A DNA stretch of 62,382 bases, filler included. It is 5 parts of 5 records of this genome, joined end to end, with 100 filler letters (N's around TTAATTAATTAA, not from the genome) between each part and the next. Parts side by side here need not be neighbours in the genome. Positions count along the whole stretch, not along the records: positions 38,300 to 62,382 come from SRR31156797_3900; 4 more parts are not named here. The stretch is one strand, 5' to 3'. This document shows positions 38,300-52,004 of the stretch, one piece after another; within the stretch, counting starts at the first letter, position 1; the number at the start of each line of letters is the position of its first letter. A model generated the notes under the pieces. The model made no database searches, was not told the DNA's origin, and was given only the letters and a program-made list of their open reading frames with translations. The translations under genes and the position numbers were made by a program.

Positions 38300-39478
38300 T
38301 TTACCCCCACCTTCACGGTAACGTCTTTCTTTTTCCAGGATTTCCCGTTTATGATTCCAGGCCAGAAGAAGCGTGTAGGGCGGGTTATCCCGGAGAAAAT
38401 GGTTGTGGGACTTAACGGGAATATGTGTTCCCGGAGTATATTTTCCGATCTTTGTGGGCGTTGTATCCGACACGTAATCGATCAGATCCGGACCGATCCG
38501 TGAGTGGATCAGAAGGGTCGTGCTTTTGGATGTGGCGCCGTAAGCCGCAATCCGGTTCCCCTCTTCCTTTATTTTTACAAGGGTCCGTTTCAGGTCCGAG
38601 CATACCCTGTCCACATTTTCCTTGAACGGAACATATCCCCTAAATTCATGAAGGTCCAAAGCCTTTTCCCGGGACAAGTGAACCGACACATCTTCCCGCT
38701 CCGAATGGTTGCCCCCCCTCCTTAAATAATAACGCATGGATCCCCCGTGGACTTGTTTCGGGACCATGCCCACGAGCTGAAAACCATGTTGTTCGGCAAG
38801 TTTTGAGACCGCCAAGCCTGAAAAATAGTAAACATGTTCATCATAGATTTGATCAAAAGAGACTTTTCTTACGATATCCGGTAAATAGGGGTCTTGGAAG
38901 AAAAATACGCCGTCAGGCCTCAACAAAAGGCCGACCCCTTCAAATACCGAGTTGATATCCTCAATATGACACATGACATTGGCGCCACAGATGATATCCG
39001 CTTGACCATGAAGTTTTCGAATTTCCAAGGCAGTTTCAGCATTAAAAAATTTCCCAAGAACCTGAACCCCTTTATTCCTGGCAATGGTTGCCACGTTTGC
39101 CGAAGGTTCGATGCCCAGATGGGATAAGCCGAGGCCGGCAATATGTTTAAGCATGATGCCGTCATTGCAACCAAGTTCTACGATAAACGGGTCAGGTCGG
39201 CCGGAAACAAATTCAGCGATTTCTTGGGCCATTTCTCGGAAATGATTTTCCATGGCCGCTGATATGGATGAAAAATAGGCATAGGAATCGTTAAACATCA
39301 TGGCCGGATCAACGCACGATTCAAGCTGCACCATCAGGCATTTGGGGCACCATCCGAGCGATAGATGGTAACCATACTCATCCGCACCCGGATCGGTCAC
39401 AAACCTGTTGGAGATCGGCATTTTCCCAAAAGAGATAACGGTTTTGAGCTCATGAAGGCATATGTTGCAGTTGCCCAT
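38300..39478 (-). CDS. NDP-hexose C-methyltransferase (TcaB9/TylCIII-like), 3' truncated
   Basis: Zn motif CNIC..CPKC, VELGCNDG, FDQIYDEH, HGGSMR, YGATSK, LLLAWNH. Confidence 0.85.
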
Positions 39479-44508: not shown

Positions 44509-46239
44509 TTAAAAGTCAAATACCGAATCCAGGTGTTCGTCGGGAACATCAAATACAACGTCATGGGGCGGAAGCTTTTCCGTCCTGAAAAATTCAGGAA
44601 GCCTGTCATCTGCCCGGGTAAACCCTGCACGGGTGTTGAAATCCGTCTCCATTTTTAAAACCCGCTGACCGAGTGCGCCGATATCATCTCCGGTGAGGGT
44701 GAGGCCGTATTTGGCGTTTACCATATCCACGATGGCGGTAAAGGCATCTGGAATGTCCAGTACCGGAAAGGCCACGAAAAGACAGAGTCCGGCCGTGTCG
44801 ATGGCGGCCGTGGCCACCTGTAGATCGCTCGACAGCTTGGCCTGGCTTTCGGTTCTGAGGGGGTGGACATCTCCGCCCACTTTCATGATGTTGGTGGCAA
44901 CGGCATAGCCGGCCGTATGGTCTCCGCCCATGGGCGATGTGGCATAGGTTACGCCCACACCCTTTACGGCCCTTGGATCATAAGCGGGAAGCGCCTGGTT
45001 TTTGACGACGGGAACCCGCCTTACACCAAAGGTTTTTCCCGTAACGCCTGCGCCGGAACCCAAGATTCGACCCAGGGGAGTCCCTTCGCCGATCTCATTG
45101 ACCAACGCCTCGGCCCCTGCCGTGTCGCCGAATTCCTTGATGCCGCCTTCCATGGCCACGGCCACGGCATTACCGGTTTCAATGGTATCGATTCCGATGT
45201 CGTCGCAGGCCCGATCCATCCGTGCGATGGCGTCCAGGTCTGAGATTTCGCAATTGGGTCCAAATGCCCACACCGTTTCATATTCCGGCCACTTTGAAAC
45301 ATGATCCCCTTTTTCATTCAGGTAAATTCCGGAGCACCGGATCACGCAACCGGACATGCAGCCGTGGGTCGGATCCCCCTTACGTTCAACTGTGATTTTG
45401 TTCAAGCTTTCACCGCCTACCAAATCAGCGCTTTCGAAACGTCCGGAACTGAAGTTGCGAGTGGGGAGTGCCCCGGCCTCGTTAATCACGTTGATCAGAA
45501 CGTCCGTGCCGTAGGTGGGCAACCCCTGGCTGGTCACCGGATGTTCCATCAGGGCTTTTGCAAAGCGTTTGGCGGCTGCCTTGAACGCCTCTTTGTCCGC
45601 CAGGGGTGCCAATTCTCCGCCTTCCGGATCAATGATAATGGCTTTGAGGCCCTTGGAGCCCATGACGGCACCCAACCCACCGCGGCCGGCGTGTCGGGTG
45701 GGACGAAGTTCCCTATCCGTGAAGGCCACGCTGGCGGAAGCCAGCTTCCACTCGCCTGCTTGACCGATACTGACGTAACCCATGTCGAGTCCGTATTCAT
45801 CTTTGAGCCTCTCCACCGTGGCATAGTTTCCCATGCCTTTCAGTTCATCGGCTTCCTGGAGTTCACATTTGTCTTTACCGACGAGCAGTTTGTAGAGTTT
45901 ATCTTCTTTGGGCATGCCCTCAACGATGATGGCTGAAATGCCGAGTCGGGAGAGATATCCTCCTGCCTGGCCACCTGAGTTGGCTTCCTTTATGCCGCCG
46001 GTCAGCGGGCTTTTTCCGCCCACGGAAATACGCCCGGAGTTGGCACAGTTGGTTCCCCCCAGAAGCCCGGGAGCAAATACGAGTTTGTTGTTGGGACCAA
46101 TGGGAGAACAAATGGGATCCACTTCCTTGTTGATTATTGCAGCCGTCAGCCCTCTCCCCCCCAGACCTTGATAGTCGCCGGATATTTCTTCGCTGCTTGT
46201 GGAGAGTTCCGTCATGTTGACCCTCAGGATTTTAAACAT
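44509..46239 (-). CDS. aor: Aldehyde:ferredoxin oxidoreductase (tungsten AOR family)
   Basis: KILRVNM, KSPLTGGIKEANSGG, GRGGLGAVMGSKGLKAI, CMSGCVIRC, PEYET, GLCLF. RBS AGGAGG. Confidence 0.92.
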   Translation of the reverse strand: MFKILRVNMTELSTSSEEISGDYQGLGGRGLTAAIINKEVDPICSPIGPNNKLVFAPGLLGGTNCANSGRISVGGKSPLTGGIKEANSGGQAGGYLSRLGISAIIVEGMPKEDKLYKLLVGKDKCELQEADELKGMGNYATVERLKDEYGLDMGYVSIGQAGEWKLASASVAFTDRELRPTRHAGRGGLGAVMGSKGLKAIIIDPEGGELAPLADKEAFKAAAKRFAKALMEHPVTSQGLPTYGTDVLINVINEAGALPTRNFSSGRFESADLVGGESLNKITVERKGDPTHGCMSGCVIRCSGIYLNEKGDHVSKWPEYETVWAFGPNCEISDLDAIARMDRACDDIGIDTIETGNAVAVAMEGGIKEFGDTAGAEALVNEIGEGTPLGRILGSGAGVTGKTFGVRRVPVVKNQALPAYDPRAVKGVGVTYATSPMGGDHTAGYAVATNIMKVGGDVHPLRTESQAKLSSDLQVATAAIDTAGLCLFVAFPVLDIPDAFTAIVDMVNAKYGLTLTGDDIGALGQRVLKMETDFNTRAGFTRADDRLPEFFRTEKLPPHDVVFDVPDEHLDSVFDF

Positions 46240-46554
46240 ACCAACCTCCTTTTTCTTGGTCGTTTGAAATTGCTTACATCCGCCTTTGAGGTGCCTCATC
46301 AGCGGTGCCGCCGGTTCAGGTTGTCTCAATTTTTCTTTGAGGAAAACCACACCGCTATCAGCATGCATCAAAAAAATAGGAATATCAAGAAAAATATGCA
46401 TAGAATTCAATTGTTTAGATCAATCTTGATATAAGCCCCGGTTGATAGAAAAGATTGACAGGTATTGAAATATAGTGATAATCAAAAAAGTTAAGCTTGC
46501 TTTCGTTGGATGGTTGTACTTCCTTTGATATGAACGTTTTGCAGGATTGTGCTG

Positions 46555-46794
46555 ATGGCTCTCCAGGTTTTTTTAAGTTCCACATTGAGAAAATGCCATC
46601 CCGGGTATGAGCCCTCGACGGGAATTACGCTTCATCTGGAAGGTGATATTTCCGTGGCAGCGCTTCTTCGAAATTTGAAAATTCCACAAAAATCGGTCAA
46701 AATTGTCATGGTTGATGGTGTAAACACGCCTTTTGACCATCGGCTGGAAGGAAATGAACGGGTGGCGTTTTTTCCGCCGGTGGGAGGGGGGTAG
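46555..46794 (+). CDS. MoaD/ThiS-family sulfur carrier
   Basis: Beta-grasp pattern ending VAFFPPVGGG. Confidence 0.85.
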   Translation: MALQVFLSSTLRKCHPGYEPSTGITLHLEGDISVAALLRNLKIPQKSVKIVMVDGVNTPFDHRLEGNERVAFFPPVGGG

Positions 46795-46831
46795 AAACAG
46801 ATGTTGAAACCAAATTGGGGGCGTGTGAAAG

Positions 46832-47155
46832 ATGGTTATGGATGAAAACCAAGCGGTTACCATCCGAATATTCGGATTTTTGCGCCGTTATCTGGATGAA
46901 CGCGGGTTGCCCTATGTGTTAACCGAGGAAGTTCCCGGGGAGGGGATAAGCGCATATGATCTGGTTAAGGGTCTTTCCATTCCGCCTAAGGCGGTAGAGG
47001 CTGTTTTCAAGAACGGCCAGGTGGTCAATATCTATGACCTTATTAATCAGGGGGACAGGGTTGCGCTGCTTCCCCATGGGACGCCCGGACCGTACCGTTT
47101 TTTCCTGGGAATGGCCAGGGAGAACCGCGAGCGCGCCAAGAAAGAAAACAATTAG
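46832..47155 (+). CDS. MoaD/ThiS-like ubiquitin-fold protein lacking the C-terminal GG
   Basis: VEAVFKNG...GDRVALLP followed by the extension HGTPGPYRFFLGM. Confidence 0.7.
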   Translation: MVMDENQAVTIRIFGFLRRYLDERGLPYVLTEEVPGEGISAYDLVKGLSIPPKAVEAVFKNGQVVNIYDLINQGDRVALLPHGTPGPYRFFLGMARENRERAKKENN

Positions 47156-47175
47156 ATGACGGGAGGCAGATTACG

Positions 47176-48390
47176 ATGCTTAAGGGCCGTCTTTTTTCAT
47201 GGAGCAGGAACCAGGATTCTTTTCTTAGCAGTTGTGGTTCCGCGGGCATATGGTTGATTGCAACCATTTGTTTTTCAATCGTTTTTTTGGGAATTATATT
47301 GTTGCTTTTGCGGGGCAGGACGTCTGACCGGAAACCGCCAACGGTTCCGACCACGTTTAATGGGGAAGTTCGGGAACCCATCAAATCATACGCTTTTTCA
47401 AAAAAGGGGGTCGAAAAACGTGAAAAGCCTGCTCAGAAACCCATTACCCCTTCAGAAGATCGGTTACCTGGAAAACCGGACACATCTCCTCAAGAGCCTT
47501 TAACGGCAGGTCCTTCCCCAATACAGGATGTGTCTCCCGATGATCCGCCCGGCAAGGGGATGTTGTCCCGGGACCTGAAGAAACAGGGTCCCCCCGATTT
47601 GTCTGAAACCCGCAAAGTTCCCCCATCCCAGCCTGTGGTAACACCGCCTTTGGTTGCTGAAAACTCAAAGCTTACCCATGAGACGTTACCGTCCGATGTT
47701 GAAAAAACCACGCCGGCTGTGCTTCCCGAAGCCTCAGTCCCTACCGAAAGGACGTCTGCGCTGTTATCTGAAAAACCGGTGGGGGCGAAGGTCGAATCCG
47801 TTGAGAAAGACCCAAAAGAAATGACGGTGCGGGTAGTCATGGGAAATGTTCGTAAAGGTCCATCCGTCAAGGAAGAGGTTGTATTTACCGTTGCCCGTGG
47901 GGATACCCTTCAGGTGACCGATCGGAAAGGGAACTGGTATGCGGTGCGTCTTCATAACGGTCGATCGGGCTGGGCCCATCATACCCTTCTTCAAGGACCT
48001 TCCGTACGGCTTTCAAAAACGGCCCCTTCAAGTCCCAAAAGCGGAGGGAAAAGCGTGATCAACGGAATTCGTACGGTGGTTACGGATCCCAATCGTGCGC
48101 AAATCATCTTTGAACTCAGTGGATACCATCCACCTGAAATTATGGTTATCGAGGGTGAGGTGCCTCGAGTTGTGTGTGATTTTTTTTCAGCGCGACTGGC
48201 GCCGGGTGTCAAAAAAAATATATCGGTCAAAACAGGCGTGGTGAAGCGGATTCGGGTAGGGGTTCACAAGGGATCCAAACCGAAGGTACGCGTGGTGCTT
48301 GACCTTAATGCCGGGCAAAATTACGCCGTTGAACAGTTTTTCTTTGAAAAAGAGAATTATTATGCACTGATGGTTAACTCGGGCAAGTGA
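47176..48390 (+). CDS. Membrane-anchored protein with SH3b and AMIN-like domains
   Basis: TM helix, Pro-rich linker, GNVRKGPS..GNWYAVRLHNGRSGWAH (SH3b), PRVVCDF..VKRIRVG..KVRVVLDL (AMIN). Confidence 0.7.
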   Translation: MLKGRLFSWSRNQDSFLSSCGSAGIWLIATICFSIVFLGIILLLLRGRTSDRKPPTVPTTFNGEVREPIKSYAFSKKGVEKREKPAQKPITPSEDRLPGKPDTSPQEPLTAGPSPIQDVSPDDPPGKGMLSRDLKKQGPPDLSETRKVPPSQPVVTPPLVAENSKLTHETLPSDVEKTTPAVLPEASVPTERTSALLSEKPVGAKVESVEKDPKEMTVRVVMGNVRKGPSVKEEVVFTVARGDTLQVTDRKGNWYAVRLHNGRSGWAHHTLLQGPSVRLSKTAPSSPKSGGKSVINGIRTVVTDPNRAQIIFELSGYHPPEIMVIEGEVPRVVCDFFSARLAPGVKKNISVKTGVVKRIRVGVHKGSKPKVRVVLDLNAGQNYAVEQFFFEKENYYALMVNSGK

Positions 48391-48459
48391 TGCCCGAAAG
48401 TCGGGATCAGAGCATTATGGAGCGAGCTTCGTTTGTTGGGATAAGTGCCGGGAAGGCCA

Positions 48460-49038
48460 TTATGGCACATAAAGATCGCTTTTTTTCCAGTCCCTGCGTG
48501 TCTCCTGAAAAGACTTCAGAAAACTGCGGCCTTTTTTGTCACGAAGATCATAAACGGCGTGTCTCAGGATGGCAACCGGCAGGCCCCCTTTGAGGCTGCA
48601 GGTGATTTCGTACCGGCTGAAGCCGGTTATGAGCCCCTTGATAATTTCCCCCTCAAGCAGTGTGAAGAAAACCACCTTCCTTTCTTTCATCAGGGGGAAA
48701 AGGGATTTGTTTTTGATGTGGTGCCTCTGGGCGGGCGCAATAATCGGGTCCAGTGCCGCCTTTACAACCTTTGGGTCTGTTTTTAGAAGTGGTCGGACTT
48801 TATCCGAAATCTCCAGTGGATAAAGGATCTTAATATCTGTTTTTGACAAAACCGATTCTTTGGTGTCACTGCTTTTGATTTTCAGATCGTAGACCAGATT
48901 CTTGCGGATCTCCGCACGGATAATGCGATGACCGTGAAGGTGGAATTCCCATGGCGCTTTGGATTTACAGGCCTGATCAAAAACCGAAGTGCCGTAAGTC
49001 TCCTTCAAATATTCCTGAAGCCCTGAAAGAAATCCCAT
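48460..49038 (-). CDS. Hypothetical protein with two Hfq/Sm-like repeats
   Basis: Residues ~109-166 align by eye with Hfq (see findings); residues ~17-74 are a more divergent copy. Confidence 0.6.
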   Translation of the reverse strand: MGFLSGLQEYLKETYGTSVFDQACKSKAPWEFHLHGHRIIRAEIRKNLVYDLKIKSSDTKESVLSKTDIKILYPLEISDKVRPLLKTDPKVVKAALDPIIAPAQRHHIKNKSLFPLMKERKVVFFTLLEGEIIKGLITGFSRYEITCSLKGGLPVAILRHAVYDLRDKKGRSFLKSFQETRRDWKKSDLYVP

Positions 49039-49130
49039 GTCAATCTCTTAAACCGAGGTGTAAAAAAAAAGTTTCCGGCCCCTTCATATTTGGGGGCATG
49101 CAGATCTCGAAAAGAAGATGGTATTAGAAA

Positions 49131-49631
49131 CTAATCTCCCATATCTTCTTTCAGTTTCTCTTCAAATTCCTTGAAAAACTGATCCTTTTCTTTCCAGTCG
49201 GGTCCAAAACGCTTACTGAAATACTGTCCCAGTTTTCTGAAGAGTTTCTCCCATACCGGTTTGCCCTCTCCCAGGACCACGTCTTCGAGGAATGTATTGA
49301 GTTCGGCAATTTTTTCCTTGGGGAGGAATGAAACAGCGCCCAATTTGATGGATCTTTTTAAGGATTCCGGAGAAAGGGCGTGAGCGGTCAGCATTACGGT
49401 TGGAAATTCCCTGGATACGGCCGTTTTAAGGAGTTCAAACCCGTTTACTCCCATAATGTCAAGAATGACGATGTCATAGGTATAGCTGAGAAGGTATTGG
49501 AGCGCCGTATCATAATCCGTTGCCTTGTGGATGAGACACATGTCCAGTTCTTCCTCTACGGTTTCCAACACATCGGGCTCGTCGTCCACCACCAGGATAA
49601 CTTTGTCCGTTAAAGCACTTTTTTGAGCCAT
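49131..49631 (-). CDS. Response regulator receiver protein with C-terminal extension
   Basis: ILVVDDE, ILDIMGVNG, MLTAHA, FLPK. Confidence 0.88.
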   Translation of the reverse strand: MAQKSALTDKVILVVDDEPDVLETVEEELDMCLIHKATDYDTALQYLLSYTYDIVILDIMGVNGFELLKTAVSREFPTVMLTAHALSPESLKRSIKLGAVSFLPKEKIAELNTFLEDVVLGEGKPVWEKLFRKLGQYFSKRFGPDWKEKDQFFKEFEEKLKEDMGD

Positions 49632-49845
49632 TATAAGATTGTCCTCCTGTTATTCCCTATTTTCAAAATACTCATAATGAGCATGTTTTACCATAAATCA
49701 GTGATCAACTCCCAAACTTTATACTAGAAATCCATGTTTTATCAAGAGAAAAATATGATGGGTCTGCCCGTTTTAACCCGTATGTCGATTTCAATATTGC
49801 TCCAATGGGTCATTTCGGATATGCTCATGGCGAGGATGTTTCCAT

Positions 49846-50442
49846 ATGTGTATACGTACCATTGAAAATCCCTACCGTTTACGGTCATATTGGAGGGCGG
49901 GTCGTTTTCTCCATGTAATGACCCTTGCCGAGCTGGCCTTGCTTTGCATGGTTTATTCGTGTTTTCCCATATCTTTTGGGGATTTGACGGCTGTCGGCAT
50001 CTTTTTCAAATTGATACTGATGTCTTTTCTTGCCGCGCTCCCCCTTTTCAGCCAGTTGGATGCCCGTTCCCGCTACCAGAACTACAAACAGCTCAAGGAC
50101 CAGTTGTTTTTGTACGGTTTCGACAGGCGCATCTTTAAGCCGATTTTGCAGTCCCGTTGTCAGCGGGATGCCGCCTTGGCGGCTGCTGAGGAACTGGGAT
50201 ACGGGAACAGATGTCGTCATTATTTCAGAACCTGTGGTTACAGATGGTACCATCTGGTGCCCGATTTTATTTTCCGGTCCCCGTACTTTCTTCTGACCGG
50301 GGCTTTTTGGCGAAGGACCTTTTTCATGCCGACCTATGAACCCAAGGTCGATTTTAAAATGATGGTGGGGAATGTTCAACATTCTTTGAAGGTTTCCCCC
50401 ATGATGAAAAGACGGTTGAAACCCGTGGAGGAGAAGTCATGA
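49846..50442 (+). CDS. Hypothetical membrane protein
   Basis: Two TM helices then LDARSRYQNYK..SRCQR..GYRWYH; stop overlaps the next start (ATGA). Confidence 0.65.
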   Translation: MCIRTIENPYRLRSYWRAGRFLHVMTLAELALLCMVYSCFPISFGDLTAVGIFFKLILMSFLAALPLFSQLDARSRYQNYKQLKDQLFLYGFDRRIFKPILQSRCQRDAALAAAEELGYGNRCRHYFRTCGYRWYHLVPDFIFRSPYFLLTGAFWRRTFFMPTYEPKVDFKMMVGNVQHSLKVSPMMKRRLKPVEEKS

Positions 50443-51209
50443 AGATCATCGCTGTCAATGGGACCTATCGTTCGGGAAAAACCACAACATTGTTGACCCG
50501 GAAGGCGCTGGAAGGGTCTGCGTCAATGGGCGCGGAAACGGAGATGCTTCTGCTTAAGGAGAAGCGGATAGAATATTGCCGCAATTGTTTGACCTGCTAC
50601 GGGGATTTATCATCGGAAATCGCGCCGTGTGTTATTGACGATGATATGGATGAAATTCTTGAAAAGCTTAATAATGCGGATGGTATCATCTTTGCCTCAC
50701 CGGTTCACAATGGCTTTATGACAGGATTGATGACCGTTTTCTTTGAAAGGAGCGCCTGGCGGGTATGCCGTCCCACCCGGAAAATGTTCGGTATGAAAGG
50801 CTTGCCCGAATCGCGCCTTACCAATAAACCGCGGGCCATTGCCACAATCGTCAGTGCAGGCGGTATGCCCACGGGGTTGCGGAAACTCTGTGACCAGGGA
50901 ACGGCATTTCTAAAGGATAACGGACCGTGGTTTTTTAACGGTAATTTCATTGGAGATCTATACGCGGGCGCTGAACTTACGCGGATGCCCGAATGTGATG
51001 AGGATTGGCATAAACTCTATTTCATGAGAAAACTCTCCCGGGGTCAACTGCGGAAGGCCCATGACCTGGGCGTCAAAATGGCCGTAGCCATCCGGGAGAA
51101 GAAACTGAAGGATTTTCAACCGGCCGGACCCATCGCCGAAACCGTTATGGGGGTCCTGTTGAAATTTTGGCCCACATACAAGACCGCGGACAACATTGAC
51201 GAAAAATGA
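50439..51209 (+). CDS. Flavodoxin-like iron-sulfur flavoprotein / NADPH-dependent FMN reductase family
   Basis: IIAVNGTYR, CRNCLTC..C..DDM, ADGIIFASPV. Confidence 0.82.
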   Translation: MKIIAVNGTYRSGKTTTLLTRKALEGSASMGAETEMLLLKEKRIEYCRNCLTCYGDLSSEIAPCVIDDDMDEILEKLNNADGIIFASPVHNGFMTGLMTVFFERSAWRVCRPTRKMFGMKGLPESRLTNKPRAIATIVSAGGMPTGLRKLCDQGTAFLKDNGPWFFNGNFIGDLYAGAELTRMPECDEDWHKLYFMRKLSRGQLRKAHDLGVKMAVAIREKKLKDFQPAGPIAETVMGVLLKFWPTYKTADNIDEK

Positions 51210-51239
51210 AGTGAACCTGTTTGTGCCGGATTAAAAAGA

Positions 51240-52004
51240 TCACCCCATAAAATCCGATCCCTGAACCATGGGGAGCAGGGAGGCGGCCTCCCGATCCAGC
51301 AGCCAGGTCAGTTTCCCGGACCGGGGCCGGATTCCCAGAGCCGGAAGGCCCCGTTGTTTTTTTTCGAGTATCGCCTGAACAATACCCGCTTTGCCTTTTC
51401 CCGATGCCAGGAAAACGACCTCCCGCGCCCGGTTCAGGATGGGGTAGGTCATGGTTAATCGGTTGACGTTCGGCGTTCCGTCCTTGACCGTTGAAATAAG
51501 TTTTTTTTGTTCCCGTAATGCCGATGTTTTTGGAAACAGGGATGCCGTGTGTCCGTCGGTTCCGATACCCAGCAGGATGAGGTCAAATGCGGGGATTTCA
51601 TGGGTGCCGGTTTCAAAAAAAAACGTGATTTCCTTCTGGTAATGGAAGGCACCCTCATCAGGGGCCATGTGGACGGGCATGGGGTGGATGTTTTTCCTGG
51701 AAATGGGGAGCCCATCAATGAAATCCTTACGGGCTGCGCCGTAATTGCTGGCGGGGTCTTCCACGGGAACACACCGTTCGTCAACCCAGAAAAAGTGGGT
51801 TTTGTTCCACGAAATGCTCGAACGAAAAGGTTCTTCCGCCAGTCGCCGGTGCATGCCCCTGGGGGTAGAGCCCCCTGAAAGGGCCACCGTAAAAAAACCC
51901 TTTCGTTCGATGGCATGTCCGGCACTTTGGGCGAAAAGGGTTGCGCCGGCATCTGAAAGCCGGGCGGGATTCTCTTTAATCATCACTTGAAATTGAGTGG
52001 GCAT
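51240..52004 (-). CDS. pgl: 6-phosphogluconolactonase
   Basis: ALSGGSTP, FWVDERCVP, LLGIGTDGHTASLFP, RLTMT. Confidence 0.93.
   Translation of the reverse strand: MPTQFQVMIKENPARLSDAGATLFAQSAGHAIERKGFFTVALSGGSTPRGMHRRLAEEPFRSSISWNKTHFFWVDERCVPVEDPASNYGAARKDFIDGLPISRKNIHPMPVHMAPDEGAFHYQKEITFFFETGTHEIPAFDLILLGIGTDGHTASLFPKTSALREQKKLISTVKDGTPNVNRLTMTYPILNRAREVVFLASGKGKAGIVQAILEKKQRGLPALGIRPRSGKLTWLLDREAASLLPMVQGSDFMG

Follow-up and report, generated by a model that had tools for sequence, protein, structure and literature searches.

A candidate Hfq/Sm-like protein with two fused domains, encoded downstream of a stand-alone response regulator

The window analyzed here is a stretch of 62,382 nucleotides in which five parts from five records of one genome are joined by filler letters, and positions 38,300 to 62,382 come from SRR31156797_3900. 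Within this last part, the minus strand carries a gene for a tandem Hfq/Sm-like protein and, directly upstream of it, a gene for a response regulator. The features of the locus are as follows, in the order in which they would be read:

49638..49745, minus strand: two sigma-70-like promoter candidates ahead of the regulator gene, by consensus match alone
49131..49631, minus strand: gene for a stand-alone response regulator, 166 aa (Pfam Response_reg, PF00072, E 1.2e-12, 48.5 bits versus a cut-off of 30.2)
49039..49130, minus strand: spacer of 92 nt between the regulator gene and the tandem gene (from gene coordinates)
48460..49038, minus strand: gene for the tandem Hfq/Sm-like protein, 192 aa (ATG-started ORF; stop codon at 48460-48462)
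48817..48990, minus strand: N-terminal Sm-like domain, residues 17-74 (model, hhalign and structural match)
48715..48816, minus strand: inter-domain linker, residues 75-108 (two short helices, 75-84 and 89-94, in the AlphaFold2 model)
48538..48714, minus strand: C-terminal Hfq-like domain, residues 109-167 (Pfam, phmmer, profile, hhalign and structural match)
48463..48537, minus strand: basic C-terminal tail, residues 168-192, pI 10.3 (helices 175-181 and 183-186 in the AlphaFold2 model)

The start codon of the tandem gene is supported by the N-terminal residues of the protein, since M1, G6, E9, Y10 and L11 were nearly invariant in 30 homologues. With a pI of 9.75 and 36 Lys and Arg versus 22 Asp and Glu residues, the protein is basic, which would suit contact with nucleic acid. 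Two residues of the linker, P98 and R105, were nearly invariant, being kept in 90% or more of 49 relatives. Eight tail residues (F173, L174, K175, S176, Q178, D183, W184 and K186) were invariant in 30 sequences of the close family, and the tail was missing in many distant relatives. The homologue search yielded 621 homologues of the tandem protein, and no match to it could be identified in phage and plasmid collections (tblastn, E <= 0.01). A search of positions 46000-52000 with Rfam gave one sub-threshold match only (SNORA16, E 0.5), which was taken as chance. RNA runs containing the locus were absent from the listing of sequencing runs.

When the query was used alone, its relationship to Hfq was faint. 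It matched the Pfam Hfq family (PF17209) over residues 113-152 with E 0.11 and 12.6 bits, under the cut-off of 27, and a phmmer search of the PDB returned three matches, all of them Hfq or Hfq-like (E 0.5-0.9). With a profile built from 49 relatives, the first 37 rows of the PDB search consisted of Hfq or Hfq-like sequences throughout (best E 3.2e-6). Pfam Hfq was matched at E <= 0.01 by 32 of 92 relatives (best 1.4e-11), and the relative P0207 exceeded the cut-off of that family with 33.4 bits. In the reverse direction, a profile of the tandem family matched G394, a canonical Hfq gene, with E 1.2e-4. At the level of sequence, the Hfq kinship of the single query is weak, but it goes well beyond chance when family profiles are used.

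The first-pass annotation had aligned residues 112-165 with Escherichia coli Hfq. These residues were confirmed in the ORF as they had been quoted, and so was their likeness to Hfq: against a reference set of canonical Hfq (20 sequences of the same phylum), the C half was matched by hhalign over residues 109-167 (96.3%, E 1.7e-9) and the N half over residues 18-71 (91.1%, E 1.1e-6). The more divergent repeat that had been placed at about residues 17-74 was likewise recovered, in that a profile comparison related residues 20-71 to residues 113-164 (94.4%, E 9.3e-8). Judged by these profiles, both halves are homologous to Hfq. The description of the protein as unannotated stood only in part. No family for the tandem protein above cut-off was found in NCBIfam or Pfam, and NCBI records say 'hypothetical protein'; on the other hand, the label 'sRNA-binding regulator protein Hfq' had been given by the JGI pipeline to 8 of the 120 homologues among the matches listed. 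The prevalence of the annotation 'hypothetical protein' is due to the Pfam and NCBIfam models, which miss the tandem family at their cut-offs. A separate candidate, FljA/Flag1_repress (PF03614), was suggested by protein atlas clusters at feature scores of 0.90 but found no support in profile searches: PF03614 was absent from the Pfam scan of the query (E <= 1), and its profile had no match at the tandem loci of five holder genomes (E <= 10).

The predicted structure agrees with the idea, put forward in the first-pass annotation, of a fused protein with two Sm domains, an idea that thereby withstood the structural test set for it in that annotation. The Sm fold is made up of an N-terminal helix and, after it, a bent antiparallel sheet of five strands. 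In the AlphaFold2 monomer model (pLDDT 96.9, pTM 0.91), a helix followed by five strands, which is the Sm topology, is present twice: helix 19-26 with strands 30-34, 38-47, 51-56, 62-65 and 69-74 in the N domain, and helix 110-118 with strands 122-127, 131-140, 144-148, 154-158 and 162-167 in the C domain. The best structural matches of both domains were Hfq. Hfq structures filled ranks 1-11 of the Foldseek search, at target-normalised TM-scores (TMt) of 0.75-0.86, and a structure search independent of Foldseek again ranked Hfq at the top. In a second alignment of the matches, which located Hfq on both domains, the C domain was superimposed on Hfq structures at Z 6.6-6.8 (rmsd 0.7-1.6 A, 58-65 residues), including Staphylococcus aureus Hfq at Z 6.6 (rmsd 0.7 A, 58-59 residues), and the N domain at Z 5.2-5.9 (rmsd 1.4-1.7 A, 57-63 residues), including Synechocystis Hfq at Z 5.9 (rmsd 1.6 A, 63 residues). 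Structural Z values of 5-7 fall short of 8, the level at which the tool regards a match as clearly above a common arrangement, which makes the case dependent on the combination of sequence profiles and structure. Both halves are thus predicted to adopt the Hfq fold, and the tandem protein is a variant of the Hfq/Sm family with two fused domains, which we judge to be new.

Conservation across 92 relatives was highest at K66, R105, L113, G130, G135, E144, R159 and H160, of which G130, G135, E144, R159 and H160 were each kept in at least 90% of these sequences. G130 and G135, which were invariant and kept in at least 90%, respectively, among 49 relatives, align with the Sm1 glycines of Hfq; at the equivalent positions of the N domain the query has H37 and A42, so that Sm1 glycines are found in the C domain only. 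The Sm2 motif of Hfq is of the [Y/F]KHA type, and its basic residue and His line the pore. The Sm2-like motif of the C domain is RHAV at residues 159-162, with R159-H160-A161 aligned with the K-H-A of Hfq, whereas K66-T67-D68 of the N domain keeps the Lys and has T67 in place of the His. In addition, Y143 of the C domain and Y50 of the N domain align with the Phe of Hfq. In Hfq, the counterparts of R159-H160 and K66, together with those of Y143 and Y50, form the uridine-binding pocket at the pore. The C domain would then retain R159-H160 as the basic-His pair lining the pore and Y143 as the stacking aromatic, and the N domain would retain K66 and the aromatic Y50, without the His. With the Sm2 His lost from the N domain and T126 of the C domain at the position of the distal-face aromatic of Bacillus subtilis Hfq, the tandem protein does not keep all the RNA sites of Hfq.

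In many bacteria, regulation by small RNAs depends on Hfq as its central matchmaker, and there are many bacterial lineages without a recognisable hfq. The tandem family is conserved and single-copy in the genomes that hold it, and comprises more than 600 sequence clusters. It is present at least in the Desulfatiglandales and Desulfobacterales groups, in Entotheonella and in a small number of further labelled lineages. The search for a canonical hfq that had been proposed earlier was run on the genomes of relatives, and none could be identified in any holder. Canonical Hfq was found in 0 of the 151 genomes of the class sample, 52 of which hold the tandem gene, and in 0 of 10 individual holder genomes, including Entotheonella, Calditrichaceae and 'Cytophagia'. 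In the phylum sample, it was found in 0 of 15 holders versus 83 of 286 non-holders (one-sided Fisher p = 0.007, uncorrected for relatedness). The tandem family, a conserved family with two Hfq-like domains, is confined to genomes in which a canonical hfq could not be identified. However, this mutual exclusion is largely a clade-level pattern. Since hfq is missing from the entire class sample, and neither gene was found in 99 of its 151 genomes, it may reflect few evolutionary events. The presence of the tandem gene in relatives of sulfate reducers that have no ordinary Hfq implies that it may encode their missing RNA chaperone.

On this basis, we propose that an Hfq-like domain was duplicated and the copies became fused, giving rise to the tandem protein, which would bind single-stranded RNA and may serve as the Hfq-type RNA-binding protein of Hfq-less lineages. 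Taken as a whole, this reading (a duplicated and fused Hfq-like domain producing a basic two-domain Hfq/Sm protein, with a presumed Hfq-type RNA-binding role) is given a probability of about 0.6.

Not all roles of the Sm fold involve RNA; for example, the WYL domain is an Sm-like module in DNA-bound transcription regulators. The tandem protein could accordingly have the Sm/Hfq fold and yet be a protein- or DNA-binding regulator, modelled on WYL or on Rof, an Sm-like protein by which the transcription terminator Rho is blocked, rather than an RNA chaperone. Rof/YaeO (6jie_A) ranked high in the structure search (Z 6.0, rmsd 2.5 A, 70 residues), where regulators with WYL domains were listed at Z 3.9-4.1, but every significant sequence-profile match was to Hfq proper and none to Rof or WYL. 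Fusions in long, distant relatives point both ways: a C-terminal HTH_3 DNA-binding domain was present in 4 of 63, whereas the N-terminal cold-shock domain found in 8 of 63 points to single-stranded nucleic acid. The missing Sm2 His of the N domain and the Thr at the distal-face aromatic position fit a regulator of this kind, as does the inhibition of Rho by Rof, a homologue of Hfq, described in the abstract of PMC11018626. Nevertheless, the best-conserved residues are those aligned with the pore-lining Lys-His and the stacking aromatic of Hfq, and the holder lineages are without Hfq. We therefore consider a non-chaperone regulator to be unlikely and favor an Hfq-type RNA-binding role.

With regard to assembly, the most likely arrangement would be the pseudo-hexameric ring of three chains suggested in the first-pass annotation, in which six Sm domains are arranged with N and C domains alternating. 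In Hfq, ring formation through pairing of strand 4 with strand 5 is the rule, and fusing two ring-forming domains usually halves the number of chains, both of which argue against the other arrangement to be weighed, that is, an RNA-binding but self-contained pseudo-dimer, or another non-hexameric assembly, whose Sm domains pack within one chain. Such packing would be in line with the monomer model, which forms one rigid unit predicted with very high confidence and has extra short strands (residues 3-4, 86-87, 172 and 190-191) as well as terminal helices that could cap the edges. No solved chain spanning both domains as one unit was found in the structure search. Furthermore, Sm proteins with 5 to 8 or more subunits, as well as Sm modules that do not oligomerise, are described in the relevant part of PMC3710371. 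A self-contained pseudo-dimer appears to be a real but minor possibility next to the three-chain ring.

The upstream gene matches what had been claimed from the sequence, namely that the tandem gene lies downstream of a co-oriented, stand-alone response regulator. The latter consists of a receiver domain (residues 12-111) and an acidic tail of about 55 aa that is conserved; no recognised output domain was found in it by Pfam or NCBIfam. Its candidate residues for the acidic pocket, the phospho-acceptor Asp, the Thr and the Lys of receivers (D16/D17, D58, T82 and K105) were assigned only by the pattern typical of such domains. Besides the window, 40 of 70 loci had the regulator immediately upstream in the same orientation, with a median spacer of 47 nt (range 1-233), and this adjacency persists over 53-90% identity in the tandem protein. 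A scan of positions 48300-50000 detected no terminator-like site. By eye, the spacer in the window contains a hairpin-like, GC-rich stretch with a T-run after it; it fails the rules of the terminator scan, and no claim is made for it. The two promoter matches, TTGATA-18-TAAAGT at 49745-49716 and TTGAAA-17-GACAAT at 49666-49638, each agreed with the consensus at 9 of 12 positions, and they are weak evidence because the region contained 6 such sites versus 2.7 +/- 1.7 in shuffles. In the clade of the window, the regulator and tandem genes are probably co-transcribed. Co-transcription with the regulator would tie the expression, and possibly the activity, of the tandem protein to a phosphorylation signal.

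It is conceivable that the relationship goes further, with the tandem protein acting as the effector in trans of the regulator, so that the phosphorylated receiver docks on it and switches its activity. The persistence of the adjacency over such a range of divergence, the opposite charges of the two proteins (the regulator is acidic, pI 4.7, versus the basic tandem protein) and the want of an output domain in the regulator would all suit this arrangement. However, the regulator family is multi-copy and is present in 128 of the 151 class genomes (up to 19 copies), versus 52 for the tandem gene, and near-identical regulator copies (82-90% identity) occur in other contexts without a tandem gene. 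No residues telling adjacent from non-adjacent regulators could be identified (0 positions, 37 versus 7 copies), and no receiver-tandem fusion was present among the 63 long relatives. The regulator was also missing from 26 loci with upstream sequence; no conserved neighbours were found in these 26 loci, where the largest shared cluster comprised 4 loci. The link to the regulator is thus weaker than synteny suggests, and we regard docking in trans as distinctly improbable.

A more ambitious proposal would combine these elements. The tandem protein would be the long-missing Hfq equivalent of this Desulfobacterota class and of scattered Hfq-less lineages, forming a heterotypic three-chain ring with two kinds of RNA pocket, and it would be gated in the Desulfatiglandales-type clade by a docked phosphorylated receiver. 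We consider the combination very unlikely as a whole; if true, the gated form would amount to an RNA chaperone under two-component control. Irrespective of this, the question of Hfq replacement has become directly testable, as two cultured organisms, strain NaphS2 (locus L007) and Desulfosarcina variabilis (locus L063), carry the tandem gene.

Compared with known systems, the closest is bacterial Hfq (PF17209; PDB 1kq1 from S. aureus, 3ahu/3hsb from B. subtilis and 1hk9 from E. coli), whose helix-plus-five-strand Sm fold is predicted in both tandem domains and whose Sm1 glycines, aromatic and usual KHA-type Sm2 (here RHAV) have counterparts in the C domain. Hfq assembles into a homo-hexameric ring and binds both sRNA and mRNA, whose pairing it promotes. 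By comparison, Hfq is a single Sm domain in a chain of about 70-100 aa, whereas the tandem protein has two domains in 192 aa joined by a 34-residue linker, carries in addition a conserved helix at its N-terminus and a basic tail, and is without the Sm2 His in its N domain. The Hfq-like protein MJ1435 of Methanocaldococcus jannaschii (2qtx, 4x9c and 5dy9) was the best single PDB match of the family profile (E 3.2e-6 to 4.8e-6) and was matched to the N domain at Z 5.2-5.3 (rmsd 1.4-1.6 A, 57-58 residues); unlike the tandem protein, it is archaeal and has one domain of 71 residues. Rof/YaeO shares a small Sm-like fold, but has no sequence-profile match to the tandem family and, according to the abstract of PMC11018626, acts on a protein (Rho) and not as an RNA chaperone.

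In 2002, Sun, Zhulin and Wartell reportedly mentioned an Hfq with a repeated domain. The phrase 'tandem Hfq' did not occur in the literature searched, in which nothing was found on Hfq-like proteins of Desulfobacterota either; for tandem Sm or two-Sm-domain proteins, only off-topic literature was among the matches listed. More than one Hfq-type domain per genome is also a feature of organisms with two separate hfq genes, such as Burkholderia (Hfq and Hfq2), Bacillus anthracis and Novosphingobium aromaticivorans, in which, in the parts of PMC6200039 and PMC3474761 that concern them, the genes are separate and not fused. 'Augmented' Sm proteins, in which an Sm/Hfq domain is fused to others, are exemplified in the relevant part of PMC3710371 by Pyrobaculum SmAP3 and zinc-finger-Hfq proteins on Thermococcus plasmids. 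They resemble the tandem family in that the Sm domain is a module in a larger polypeptide, as is also the case for the distant tandem relatives fused to cold-shock or HTH domains. Unlike in the tandem protein, the partner in the examples of that part of PMC3710371 is not a second Sm domain, and no Sm-Sm fusion is described there. If the fused pair forms a ring as proposed, it would exemplify a homo-oligomeric Sm ring that has been turned heterotypic without separate paralogous genes, which may be compared with the Sm/LSm rings of eukaryotes.

The open reading frame at 48460-49038 (-), which starts with ATG and encodes 192 residues, is a real and conserved gene, and its translation contains residues 112-165 as they had been quoted in the first-pass annotation. 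Among 5.8 billion protein clusters searched there were 664 candidates, 621 of which were homologues at E ≤ 1e-3; the 120 homologues listed among these showed 62-90% identity and lengths of 182-230 aa. Across 30 aligned homologues 43 columns were invariant, and since the N-terminus is among them the start codon could be fixed. NCBI names these homologues 'hypothetical protein', and the JGI labels among the 120 listed included 'sRNA-binding regulator protein Hfq' (8/120) and 'ribosomal protein S1' (2/120). A word-free HMMER scan covering 1.84 billion representatives identified 216 relatives at E ≤ 1e-3, of which 102 passed 1e-10 and 26 passed 1e-30; many of the relatives are longer proteins that carry the entire two-domain module (query residues ~10-166) at their C-terminal end. 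No match was found in phage or plasmid collections.

Taken as a single sequence, the tandem protein gave only faint Hfq signals: Pfam Hfq scored 12.6 bits (cut-off 27; E 0.11) over residues 113-152, the NCBIfam scan gave no match, and the three phmmer matches among PDB sequences, all Hfq or Hfq-like, had E 0.5-0.9 (residues 107-168). By its cut-off the protein is outside the Pfam family, whose single-domain rule it also breaks. Family profiles gave 37 consecutive Hfq or Hfq-like rows among PDB sequences, all at residues ~100-188 (best E 3.2e-6; profile A3, from 49 relatives without extra domains), and the profile of 92 sequences (A2) also matched Caulobacter Hfq (E 2.3e-4) and Aquifex Hfq (E 0.01) in the N-domain region. 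At E ≤ 0.01, Pfam Hfq was matched by 32 of the 92 relatives and Hfq_1 by 21, with a best value of 1.4e-11; in the reverse direction, the tandem-family profile retrieved a canonical hfq gene (G394; E 1.2e-4). We also split A2 into two halves, query residues 1-95 and query residues 96-192, which were aligned by hhalign, with 20 canonical Hfq sequences from genomes of the same phylum as reference. The N half matched this reference over residues 18-71 (91.1%, E 1.1e-6) and the C half over residues 109-167 (96.3%, E 1.7e-9), and the internal repeat that had been claimed was recovered between the halves, residues 20-71 aligning with 113-164 (94.4%, E 9.3e-8). Both halves are Hfq-like, the product of a duplicated Hfq-like domain.

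The AlphaFold2 model made with A2 had a mean pLDDT of 96.9 and a pTM of 0.91. It shows the Sm topology twice, with a 34-residue linker containing two short helices between the copies and a basic helical tail after the second:

N domain: helix 19-26; strands 30-34, 38-47, 51-56, 62-65 and 69-74
C domain: helix 110-118; strands 122-127, 131-140, 144-148, 154-158 and 162-167

Foldseek against the PDB gave 13 matches at E ≤ 1e-3, and ranks 1-11 were Hfq (target-normalised TM-scores 0.75-0.86); the remaining two, YdgD and the 53BP1 Tudor domain, had rmsd values above 12 Å. With a second structural aligner, residues 109-185 were matched by bacterial Hfq (Z 6.6-6.8), S. aureus Hfq superposing on the C-domain region with an rmsd of 0.7 Å over 58-59 residues, and residues 14-74 by the M. 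jannaschii Hfq-like protein (Z 5.3; 1.6 Å over 58). In a Foldseek-independent search of 48,161 chains, 12 reached Z ≥ 5, headed by Aquifex Hfq (Z 6.3), and none of the chains spanned both domains as one unit. The N domain (13-77) matched Hfq of Synechocystis, Caulobacter, S. aureus, M. jannaschii and T. maritima (Z 5.2-5.9, rmsd 1.4-2.0 Å). As the Z values are below 8, the comfort level of the tool, the fold assignment depends on the combination of structure and sequence profiles. On this basis the protein is predicted to contain the Sm/Hfq fold twice, and the two-Sm-domain fold proposed in the first-pass annotation was borne out in the model by Hfq matches of Z 5.2-6.8 across both domains.

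Eight positions (K66, R105, L113, G130, G135, E144, R159 and H160) were conserved in at least 90% of the 92 relatives. Residue equivalences were read from alignments to B. subtilis Hfq and the Hfq of the phylum. In the C domain, R159-H160-A161 aligns with the Sm2 K-H-A, Y143 with the conserved Hfq Phe, and G130 and G135 with the Sm1 glycines; K109 aligns with the N-terminal Gln, and K118, E119 and R120 with the basic patch of the Hfq helix. In the N domain, K66 is found at the Sm2 Lys, Y50 at the Phe and T67 at the Sm2 His position. Hfq has its uridine pocket around the pore on the proximal face, built from these Gln, Phe, Lys and His residues. The aligned pattern therefore suggests that the C domain keeps a pore-type site in full and the N domain part of one. 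The distal site does not obviously appear to be kept; T126 aligns with the distal-face aromatic. With a pI of 9.75 and 36 K+R vs 22 D+E, the protein is basic.

Among 63 relatives of at least 236 aa (22 of which were viewed in closer detail), an N-terminal cold-shock domain was present in eight, a C-terminal HTH_3 domain in four and a receiver domain in none. The cold-shock-fused relatives (P0205, P0213, P0232, P0244, P0253 and others) sometimes also carried a C-terminal Xre-type HTH. The N-terminal extension of ~90 aa common to most ~250-aa forms had no Pfam match. Since cold-shock domains bind single-stranded nucleic acid, these fusions fit a putative RNA-binding role of the tandem module.

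With one GTDB genome per species, 71 loci were found to encode the tandem protein. Most were labelled Desulfatiglandales, Desulfobacteraceae or 'Deltaproteobacteria', and the holders include strain NaphS2 and Desulfosarcina variabilis, which are cultured; further holders belonged to Entotheonella/Tectimicrobiota, with single records labelled Calditrichaceae, Cytophagia and SM23_31. A check for a canonical hfq had been called for earlier, and we ran it on genomes of relatives of the window: none was found in any tandem-holder genome (10 searched individually, 52 in the class sample and 15 in the phylum sample). In the ten individual genomes Pfam Hfq never scored above its cut-off, and the weak matches with checkable coordinates (genomes G001, G002, G003 and G446) fell within the tandem gene itself. 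Of 151 genomes sampled from the class to which G001 belongs, none gave a canonical Hfq and 52 gave the tandem gene, as a single match in 51 of these (in the exception the gene was split over two contigs); 99 had neither. In the phylum sample (301 genomes), 83 genomes had Hfq, 15 had the tandem gene and none had both (one-sided Fisher p = 0.007, with no correction for relatedness). Identical searches recovered Hfq in 5 of 14 control genomes. As some sampled genomes are incomplete, 'not found' does not equal 'absent' here; the tandem gene occurs only where hfq was not found.

The surroundings of the tandem gene in the window are as follows:

44509-46410 (-): aldehyde ferredoxin oxidoreductase gene, with AFOR_N and AFOR_C (E 1e-60 to 5e-79)
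46549-46794 (+): small ORF beside the preceding gene, ThiS (E 1.1e-8), ending Gly-Gly-Gly
46832-47155 (+): small ORF adjoining the ThiS ORF, no Pfam match at E ≤ 1e-5
47176-48390 (+): SH3/AMIN-domain gene, 404 aa, downstream of and convergent with the tandem gene
49039-49130 (-): spacer of 92 nt between regulator and tandem gene
49131-49631 (-): stand-alone response regulator, 166 aa, preceding the tandem gene
49846-50442 (+): ORF of 198 aa, upstream of and divergent from the regulator gene, first half hydrophobic

The farther neighbours are metabolic (aldehyde ferredoxin oxidoreductase, ThiS, FMN reductase, and 6-phosphogluconolactonase-type, enoyl-CoA hydratase and acyl-CoA synthetase-like genes). 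In the SH3/AMIN product, a hydrophobic stretch at the N-terminus and a long region rich in Pro, Ser and Thr accompany the bacterial SH3 domain (residues 224-272) and the AMIN domain (residues 304-384). In 16 other loci a homologue of this product is encoded immediately downstream of the tandem gene. The 198-aa ORF had no Pfam match at E ≤ 1 and a homologue in only one of the other loci.

The co-oriented stand-alone regulator noticed at first pass is indeed present upstream. No terminator-like site meeting the rules of the scan separates it from the tandem gene; read on the minus strand, the spacer holds a short GC-rich inverted repeat and, some bases on, a run of nine T, which could be a leaky terminator, an attenuator or nothing. 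A callable tandem ORF was available in 70 of the 71 loci, and the regulator was directly upstream and co-oriented in 40 of these, plus the window (identity 73-96%, median gap 47 nt). Adjacency was flagged outright in 37 of 71 rows (70 loci and the window), and in four further adjacent rows (loci L014, L020, L048 and L068) the overlap came only from an over-extended longest-ORF start. Of the remaining 30 loci, four had less than 400 bp of upstream sequence and 26 had upstream sequence without the regulator; no other conserved neighbour was found in these 26.

The regulator, whose family is also represented at loci L098-L105, consists of a receiver domain and a conserved acidic tail of ~55 aa; the tail had no Pfam match. 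The family is very large, unusually conserved and multi-copy: the protein collection contains 7931 or more of its clusters, and 128 of the 151 class genomes have members (up to 19 in one genome, 63-96% identity over full length). Copies occur in many different contexts. Eight copies of 82-90% identity were taken from genomes without the tandem gene, and all seven with enough downstream sequence lay in other contexts; no residues separated the 37 adjacent from the seven non-adjacent copies. The regulator is not a dedicated partner of the tandem protein. Given the multi-copy family, its other contexts and the lack of distinguishing residues, the synteny supports co-transcription in one clade and argues only weakly for a physical or specific functional link.

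Computational support comprises the domain duplication, the fold, Sm2-type residue conservation, basic charge, nucleic-acid-binding fusions and restriction to genomes in which no hfq was found. We propose that three chains would assemble into a ring of six domains, N alternating with C, and that the protein may bind single-stranded RNA at pore-type pockets. The protein would serve as an Hfq-type factor in its holder lineages, probably co-expressed with the receiver protein in the clade of the window, and may offer a concrete candidate for Hfq function in a large Hfq-less group.

Part of the family is already labelled Hfq by automatic annotation. Sun et al. in 2002 reportedly mentioned a repeated-domain Hfq, and the phrase 'tandem Hfq' did not occur in the literature searched. 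The relevant passages of the review PMC3710371 describe fusions of Sm domains with domains of different types and no Sm-Sm fusion, and in organisms with two hfq copies the corresponding portions of PMC6200039 and PMC3474761 present the copies as separate genes. Among known proteins, Rof/YaeO resembles the tandem protein in structure (Z 6.0 in the Foldseek-independent search). The tandem protein is homologous to Hfq and putatively works alike, with two domains per chain where Hfq has a single one.
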